Below are positions 7,801-7,986 of a stretch of 31,048 nt of DNA, one piece after another. The translations under genes and the position numbers were made by a program. The DNA comes from Escherichia coli (GTDB taxonomy: Bacteria; Pseudomonadota; Gammaproteobacteria; Enterobacterales; Enterobacteriaceae). The notes under the pieces are model-generated. The model was not told the origin of the DNA. It searched no databases and worked only from the letters and a program-made list of their open reading frames with translations. Position 1 is the first letter of the stretch. Every line of letters starts with the position of its first letter. The stretch lies in NCBI RefSeq assembly GCF_003334385.1, contig NZ_QOWN01000054.1; one strand, 5' to 3'.

Positions 7801-7986
7801 AAGTTATCCTTACAATGTGTTTATCGCTTGCTAAGCATCGAGTGCGACGGAAATGCCAGAATAGCACTCTCCTGCATACACGCACCGATAGCCACTTTTT
7901 TTCGCCCCCCAAATGTAGACCAGACGGGGGGCGAAAGGGAAGACTCCAGGTACGACAAATCAGGCGTTAAATCACGTTTTCTGGTC

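Follow-up and report, generated by a model that had tools for sequence, protein, structure and literature searches.

The G+C-rich inverted repeat that lies between yjaG and hupA in the 31,048-nt stretch of Escherichia coli DNA analyzed here (the window) is very probably the DNA of the sigma-70 core promoter hupA P1, without a transcribed hairpin, and we put the probability of this reading at roughly 0.87. The reading rests on data: a start site from the literature, the match and spacing of the promoter hexamers, the conservation of these hexamers, and a pairing that is not conserved among relatives. Sigma-70 holoenzyme would bind the repeat segment and start transcription inside its 3' arm. 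A start at this place leaves the hupA mRNA without the 5' arm, so that the transcript would carry only half of the repeat and could not form the hairpin. The promoter is the E. coli hupA P1 described previously (Kohno 1990; Claret & Rouviere-Yaniv 1996; PMC2760140), with the same locus, the same nucleotides and no difference. Both the promoter and the inverted repeat that overlaps it are already known, and the repeat has been discussed since 1994.

The 231-nt region around the repeat is E. coli chromosome, matches many complete genomes with 100% identity and was found in 5420 of 5426 of them. The 61-nt segment that contains the repeat is nearly fixed in the species (at least 99% identity in 5356 of 5389 genomes), and its surroundings are equally fixed. 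The genes yjaG (7987..8577, DUF416, 196 aa), hupA (7528..7800, HU-alpha, 90 aa, with the A of its ATG at 7800) and the downstream yjaH are all encoded on the minus strand. A repeat finder places the two arms at 7900-7910 and 7926-7936 (11 nt, 100% complementary, 15 nt between them; genome positions 4200145-4200181) and reports no other substantial inverted repeat between yjaG and hupA. On the coding strand the order is ...GGAGTCTTCCC-TTTCGCCCCCC-GTCTGGTCTACATTT-GGGGGGCGAAA-AAAAGTGGC..., where TTTCGCCCCCC is the 5' arm and GGGGGGCGAAA the 3' arm. A preliminary description made from the sequence had placed a GC-rich hairpin with an 11-bp stem and a 15-nt loop between yjaG and hupA, and the repeat finder and the folds agree with it. 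The stem is GC-rich as described, but it holds eight consecutive G-C pairs (CGCCCCCC/GGGGGGCG) and not six. The placement of the homopolymer tracts in that description was likewise correct, as the T7 at 7896-7902, located 5' of the stem on the plus strand, is the A7 found 3' of the stem on the coding strand. The 66-nt RNA context of the repeat folds with -29.5 kcal/mol (z -3.76) on the minus strand and -25.6 kcal/mol (z -2.99) on the plus strand. As DNA, the 45-mer of the repeat folds with -14.0 kcal/mol (z -5.4) and -13.3 kcal/mol (z -4.1) on the minus and plus strands, respectively.

Chance occurrence was estimated by counting perfect inverted repeats (arms of 11 bp or more, loops of 3-20 nt) in dinucleotide-shuffled windows. 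These number 0.125 per shuffled window, compared with 5 observed in the real window, and a qualifying perfect repeat appeared in the 186-nt intergenic region in 1 of 5000 shuffles (about 2e-4). The perfect repeat is locally improbable, yet roughly 20 are expected by chance per whole E. coli genome. A second, 8-nt inverted repeat (7917-7924/7980-7987) was dismissed, as its upstream copy varies freely between genera. Other palindromic sequences were noted elsewhere in the window. A PurR-box-like palindrome, CGCAAACGTTTTCG, is found near the window start (426-439), and a 19-nt palindrome with a perfect centre (GCGTTAGCTGAGTTTTTCG/CGAAAAATTCAGCTAACGC) at 478-515. The divergent control region of zraS and zraP contains a 20-nt inverted repeat (6251-6270/6283-6302, with 95% complementarity and 12 nt between the arms). 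This is presumably where the enhancer-binding protein ZraR binds to serve the sigma-54 promoters.

The hupA P1 start has been assigned to position -105 from the ATG (Kohno 1990; Claret 1996) and, according to the tables of Mendoza-Vargas 2009 (PMC2760140), was reproduced by directed 5' RACE. The corresponding supplement row reads 'hupA -105 DMTSS 5' RACE', with the 35_S70 box tggaGTCTTCCCTttcg and the entry 'Known hupAp1'; the table gives the sigma-70 -35 box of the -105 start as GTCTTCCCT, and the box TCTACATTTG stands as a -10-type element in one of the hupA rows. With the A of the ATG at 7800, a start at -105 places hupA +1 at window position 7905, the last G of the G6 run. The preliminary description had called for the hupA start to be located, and the published one falls inside the 3' arm. 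The mapping from genome to window was cross-checked with the Term-seq entry at 4200253, which is annotated as -28 from hupA and where the expected sequence is present. Another row of the Mendoza-Vargas table ('hupA -45 ... 10_S38 ctggTCTACATTTGgggg') was set aside as a table quirk: this box cannot be the -10 element of a start at -45, and the authors' matrix also hit it. No hupA entry is present in the portions of supplement text available from Ettwiller 2016 and Kim 2012.

All promoter elements can be laid onto the repeat on the minus strand. The -35 hexamer TTCCCT (7936..7941, -36..-31) is 18 bp upstream of TACATT and adjoins the 5' arm, and the 18-bp spacer that follows (7935..7918, TTCGCCCCCCGTCTGGTC, -30..-13) includes the C6 run. 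The 5' arm TTTCGCCCCCC (7926..7936, -31..-21) is composed of the last -35 base and the upstream part of this spacer. The sequence that would form the hairpin loop, GTCTGGTCTACATTT (15 nt, 7911..7925, -20..-6), is almost invariant in 83 species and contains the -10 hexamer TACATT (7912..7917, -12..-7), which ends 7 nt before the mapped start. The discriminator TGGGGG (7911..7906, -6..-1) precedes the start G (7905, +1), and the 3' arm GGGGGGCGAAA (7900..7910) extends from -5 to +6, comprising discriminator positions -5..-1, the +1 base and positions +2..+6. The first transcribed bases, CGAAAAAAA (7904..7896, +2..+10), include the A7 tract (7896..7902, hupA mRNA +4..+10), and the whole hupA 5' UTR is 105 nt in length (7801..7905). 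The E. coli repeat spans the whole core promoter, from -31 to +6.

The E. coli -35 hexamer matches the consensus in 3 of 6 positions, with a spacer of 18 bp. This -35 is too weak for a generic promoter scan, which gave no promoter call in the E. coli region. The weak hexamer may be offset by CRP and Fis; activation by Fis and a role of CRP as activator are both reported for the hupA promoter in secondary sources. Just upstream of hupA P1 we noted a conserved block, AAAACGTGA (7972-7980, minus strand), and a predicted Fis site, TATTGGTATAATTTTTCAGCAATA (7988-8011, minus strand), that overlaps the yjaG stop codon and is listed in Table S4 of Mendoza-Vargas (PMC2760140). The two are probably the activator region of hupA P1. 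A CRP site at AAAACGTGA is not claimed, because its second half matches poorly and a centre at about -63.5 does not coincide with the positions usual for class I sites.

The yjaG-hupA region was compared across 80 species-representative Enterobacteriaceae genomes, with Dickeya, Erwinia, Pantoea and Atlantibacter added via their YjaG homologues; counts are given over 83 species. The sequence is almost invariant from about -26, in the C-run, through the ATG, and conservation falls upstream of about -26. The -10 hexamer TACATT is invariant in the 32 distinct sequences from 79 loci and also in the 4 deeper relatives. TTCACA, which matches the consensus in 5 of 6 positions, is found at the -35 position in most genera. 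In one Kluyvera locus (L036), TTCACA-18-TACATT scores 9/12 and is the sole promoter-like site called in the scanned 2000-2400 region, and Dickeya, Erwinia, Pantoea and Atlantibacter keep TTCACA or TTCCAA, followed by 18 bp and TACATT-TGG. The E. coli -35 is a weakened form of a better ancestral or common hexamer. Downstream of the -10 element, the G at -5, -1, +1 and +3 and the C at +2 are invariant, and positions -3 and -2, which would form central stem pairs, vary to A or T. Invariant G and C positions combined with a variable stem centre are a pattern of constraint that fits a promoter.

The pairing of the two arms follows a different course from the sequence. Variants of the 3' arm include GGAGGG (the commonest), GGGAGG (Salmonella), GGAAGG, GGTAGG and GTGGGG, all with an unchanged C-run; the commonest of these changes (GGAGGG, GGGAGG, GGAAGG and GTGGGG) break central G:C pairs while the G at -5 stays invariant. 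In place of TTTCG, the outer part of the 5' arm reads TTCCG, TTCTG (the state in Salmonella), ATCTG, ATCCG, ATTGG or ATTAG elsewhere, with CGAAA unchanged. Salmonella and Klebsiella both have an interrupted repeat. Across the 32 distinct sequences, none of the 11 proposed pairs changed on both sides, and 79.2% of the cells are paired, compared with 79.5% when partners are shuffled. The longest perfect run has a median of 5 bp. Folding of the 45-mer gives a median dG of -14.3 kcal/mol, compared with -24.4 kcal/mol for the E. coli sequence. The perfect 11-bp repeat was found in only 7 of the 83 species: four Escherichia, one Citrobacter amalonaticus, Enterobacter soli and one Enterobacter-like MAG. 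The preliminary description had pointed to conservation and compensatory changes in related genera as the check on the hairpin, and had named loss of the stem in close relatives as one result that would speak against it; what we find is a sequence that is kept, a pairing that is not, no double changes and a stem that is lost. The perfect Escherichia dyad is most likely a lineage-specific coincidence. It could have arisen from two separately constrained runs, the C-run of the spacer and the G-run of the discriminator, together with a chance match of TTTCG and CGAAA.

Two of the conserved runs are observations in their own right. The C6 run (7926-7931, -26..-21) is conserved in almost all genera, although spacers usually vary freely, and this is explained neither by a pairing to the G-run nor by the usual model of a promoter. 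The A7 tract (7896-7902, +4..+10) is also conserved across genera, with rare single changes to T or C.

The discriminator invites comparison with a known class of promoters. Promoters with a G+C-rich discriminator, such as rrnB P1 and fis P, and contacts between sigma region 1.2 and the discriminator were reportedly described by Travers in 1980 and by Haugen and colleagues in 2006. Like hupA P1, rrnB P1 and fis P have a G/C block between -10 and +1. The hupA gene also resembles the genes with such discriminators in being growth-phase-regulated and Fis-activated and in encoding a nucleoid protein. The non-template strand of hupA P1 is G-rich and has G at -5, the base said to stabilize open complexes, whereas rRNA promoters have C there. 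A non-template G two bases past the -10 hexamer is said, in the 2006 work of Haugen and colleagues, to contact sigma region 1.2, and we infer that the invariant G at -5 may reflect this contact with the discriminator.

Several other functions could be assigned to the repeat, some of them at the level of RNA. With intrinsic terminators it shares a G+C-rich stem-loop beside a homopolymer tract. It differs from them in having a tract that is misplaced whichever strand is read (the stem is followed by A7 in the minus-strand RNA and by AAAGGGAAG in the plus-strand RNA, so neither carries a U-tract 3' of the stem), a loop of 15 nt and no 3' end among the Term-seq entries listed. The terminator scan called only the hupA terminator (7479..7500, minus strand, with a strong Term-seq 3' end at 4200605), with none at the repeat and none between the yjaG stop codon and hupA, in line with the earlier statement that the hairpin fits neither orientation of an intrinsic terminator. 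An Rfam scan of 7300-8700 at E<=10 returned three chance-level hits only, one of them a microRNA model on the repeat. The hairpin could instead form in read-through RNA from yjaG and set the yjaG 3' end as a terminator without U-tract, a pause site or a block to 3' exonucleases. We consider this very improbable, as is the non-canonical yjaG terminator of the preliminary description. Such a hairpin would be very stable as RNA, nothing else that resembles a terminator lies between hupA and the stop codon of yjaG, and E. coli Rho-dependent transcripts are described in PMC6061677 as often trimmed back to stable stems. However, no U-tract is present, the pairing is not conserved, and the 3' ends listed in the two parts of the Adams et al. 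2021 table include none on the plus genome strand between 4196488 and 4200253, compared with the strong hupA end at 4200605. Low expression of yjaG could hide a weak yjaG 3' end at the stem. Stem-loops at the 5' end stabilize E. coli mRNAs, the ompA 5' UTR being the classic case, and the repeat had been suggested to be such a stabilizing structure of the hupA mRNA. The probability of this is negligible, as the mapped start at 7905 lies within the 3' arm and the 5' arm is absent from the P1 transcript; a structured 5' UTR hairpin is further contradicted by the lack of compensatory substitutions and by a percentage of pairing that equals the shuffled value.

At the level of DNA, the repeat has been given a function before. 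As relayed in PMC3969353, Kohno et al. 1994 (J Biochem 115:1113) described the hupA promoter as overlapping an inverted repeat that could fold into a cruciform, and proposed that HU may favour this cruciform by raising negative superhelicity, so that promoter domains are sterically hindered and autoregulation results. Both their model and the present analysis have in common an inverted repeat that overlaps the hupA promoter, and we infer that the repeats are the same because this is the sole substantial inverted repeat in the hupA promoter region. Supercoiling promoted or constrained by HU would extrude the cruciform, distort or hide the -35, -10 and +1 positions and allow HU to repress hupA. 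Besides the published model, this is favoured by a perfect repeat that covers the entire core promoter in E. coli, is locally improbable by chance and is nearly fixed in the species, and by the preference of HU for cruciform and four-way junction DNA, which is established in the literature. We nevertheless regard it as unlikely. The dyad is lost in relatives whose promoter and HU are the same, and in the common GGAGGG variant the centre of the stem is interrupted by an A·C mismatch. The cost of extrusion is about +30 kcal/mol before the junction penalty, a rough estimate that does not include HU binding, and is high because 15 bp are unpaired in each loop. Supercoiling would release about 10-13 kcal/mol at the unconstrained in-vivo level of -0.025 to -0.03 and about 26 kcal/mol at -0.06; these energies are based on nearest-neighbour parameters for 1 M NaCl and give an order of magnitude only. 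Horwitz and Loeb reportedly built, in 1988, a promoter within an inverted repeat that was switched by superhelix-driven cruciform extrusion. That promoter was engineered, whereas the 15-bp unpaired centre of the hupA repeat makes extrusion costly. The comparative data and the rough energy estimate weaken the cruciform model, while leaving room for a role in E. coli.

A related possibility, which we consider quite improbable, is that the perfect dyad is a recent lineage-specific gain that makes a promoter with a C-run and a G-run into a switch sensitive to supercoiling or HU, in an Escherichia-specific HU-alpha loop. Escherichia has this dyad, and so, separately, do a few genomes of Enterobacter and Citrobacter. 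The switch would consist of cruciform or single-strand hairpin extrusion across -31..+6 of an ancient promoter, and, if true, Escherichia would have an HU-alpha autoregulatory loop that is absent from its relatives. The repeat might also be the palindromic operator of a dimeric transcription factor, and repressor operators typically show such a perfect dyad across the core promoter. This is extremely improbable, however, given that the half-sites evolve independently (the outer TTTCG is replaced while CGAAA is fixed) and that the 15-bp centre is asymmetric. The protein-binding site mentioned in the preliminary description is therefore correct only in a loose sense: the segment is a core promoter for sigma-70 RNA polymerase, with an action of HU proposed. 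Its dyad symmetry is not conserved, so that it does not represent a conserved operator bound by a dimeric factor.

Returning to hupA P1 and the RNA that it produces, the 105-nt hupA 5' UTR (7801-7905, minus strand) is nearly invariant in 83 species of Enterobacteriaceae, Erwiniaceae and Pectobacteriaceae. In our judgement, synonymous sites should be saturated at such divergence. The consensus fold of the leader is a long irregular hairpin from +11 to +91, without an Rfam hit; the leader hardly varies, so covariation is uninformative. A Term-seq 3' end is located at -28, and minor 5' ends are reported at -52, -45 and -4. In Dickeya fangzhongdai (L081, about 1617-1745), the variable apical loop of the leader contains an insertion of ~125 nt. 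The core of this insertion, AATCCCCGTGAGCTTACTTGAGTAAGTGAATGGGGTGAGCG, appears to resemble the consensus of the ERIC/intergenic repeat unit. At the other end of the gene, the hupA terminator (7500..7479) falls inside the longest yjaH ORF, which starts with GTG at 7521. The 3' end at 4200605 is classed as 'internal' to yjaH in the table of Adams et al. 2021, which suggests that the true yjaH start may be further downstream than GTG 7521.

The identification of the repeat with hupA P1 matters little beyond correct annotation, as this is the long-known promoter of the gene for a major nucleoid protein. It does indicate that an intergenic 'hairpin' should not be interpreted as RNA until it has been compared with mapped start sites. 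Outside Escherichia, the dyad is limited to a few scattered genomes of Citrobacter and Enterobacter, and the mechanism of the Kohno 1994 model, if true, would thus not be conserved in the regulation of hupA. Beyond Escherichia there is no conservation of the palindrome on which HU autoregulation was proposed to depend, while the promoter and the 105-nt leader are almost invariant, which argues that the constraint is on the sequence, as read by polymerase and activators and as leader RNA, and not on the dyad.
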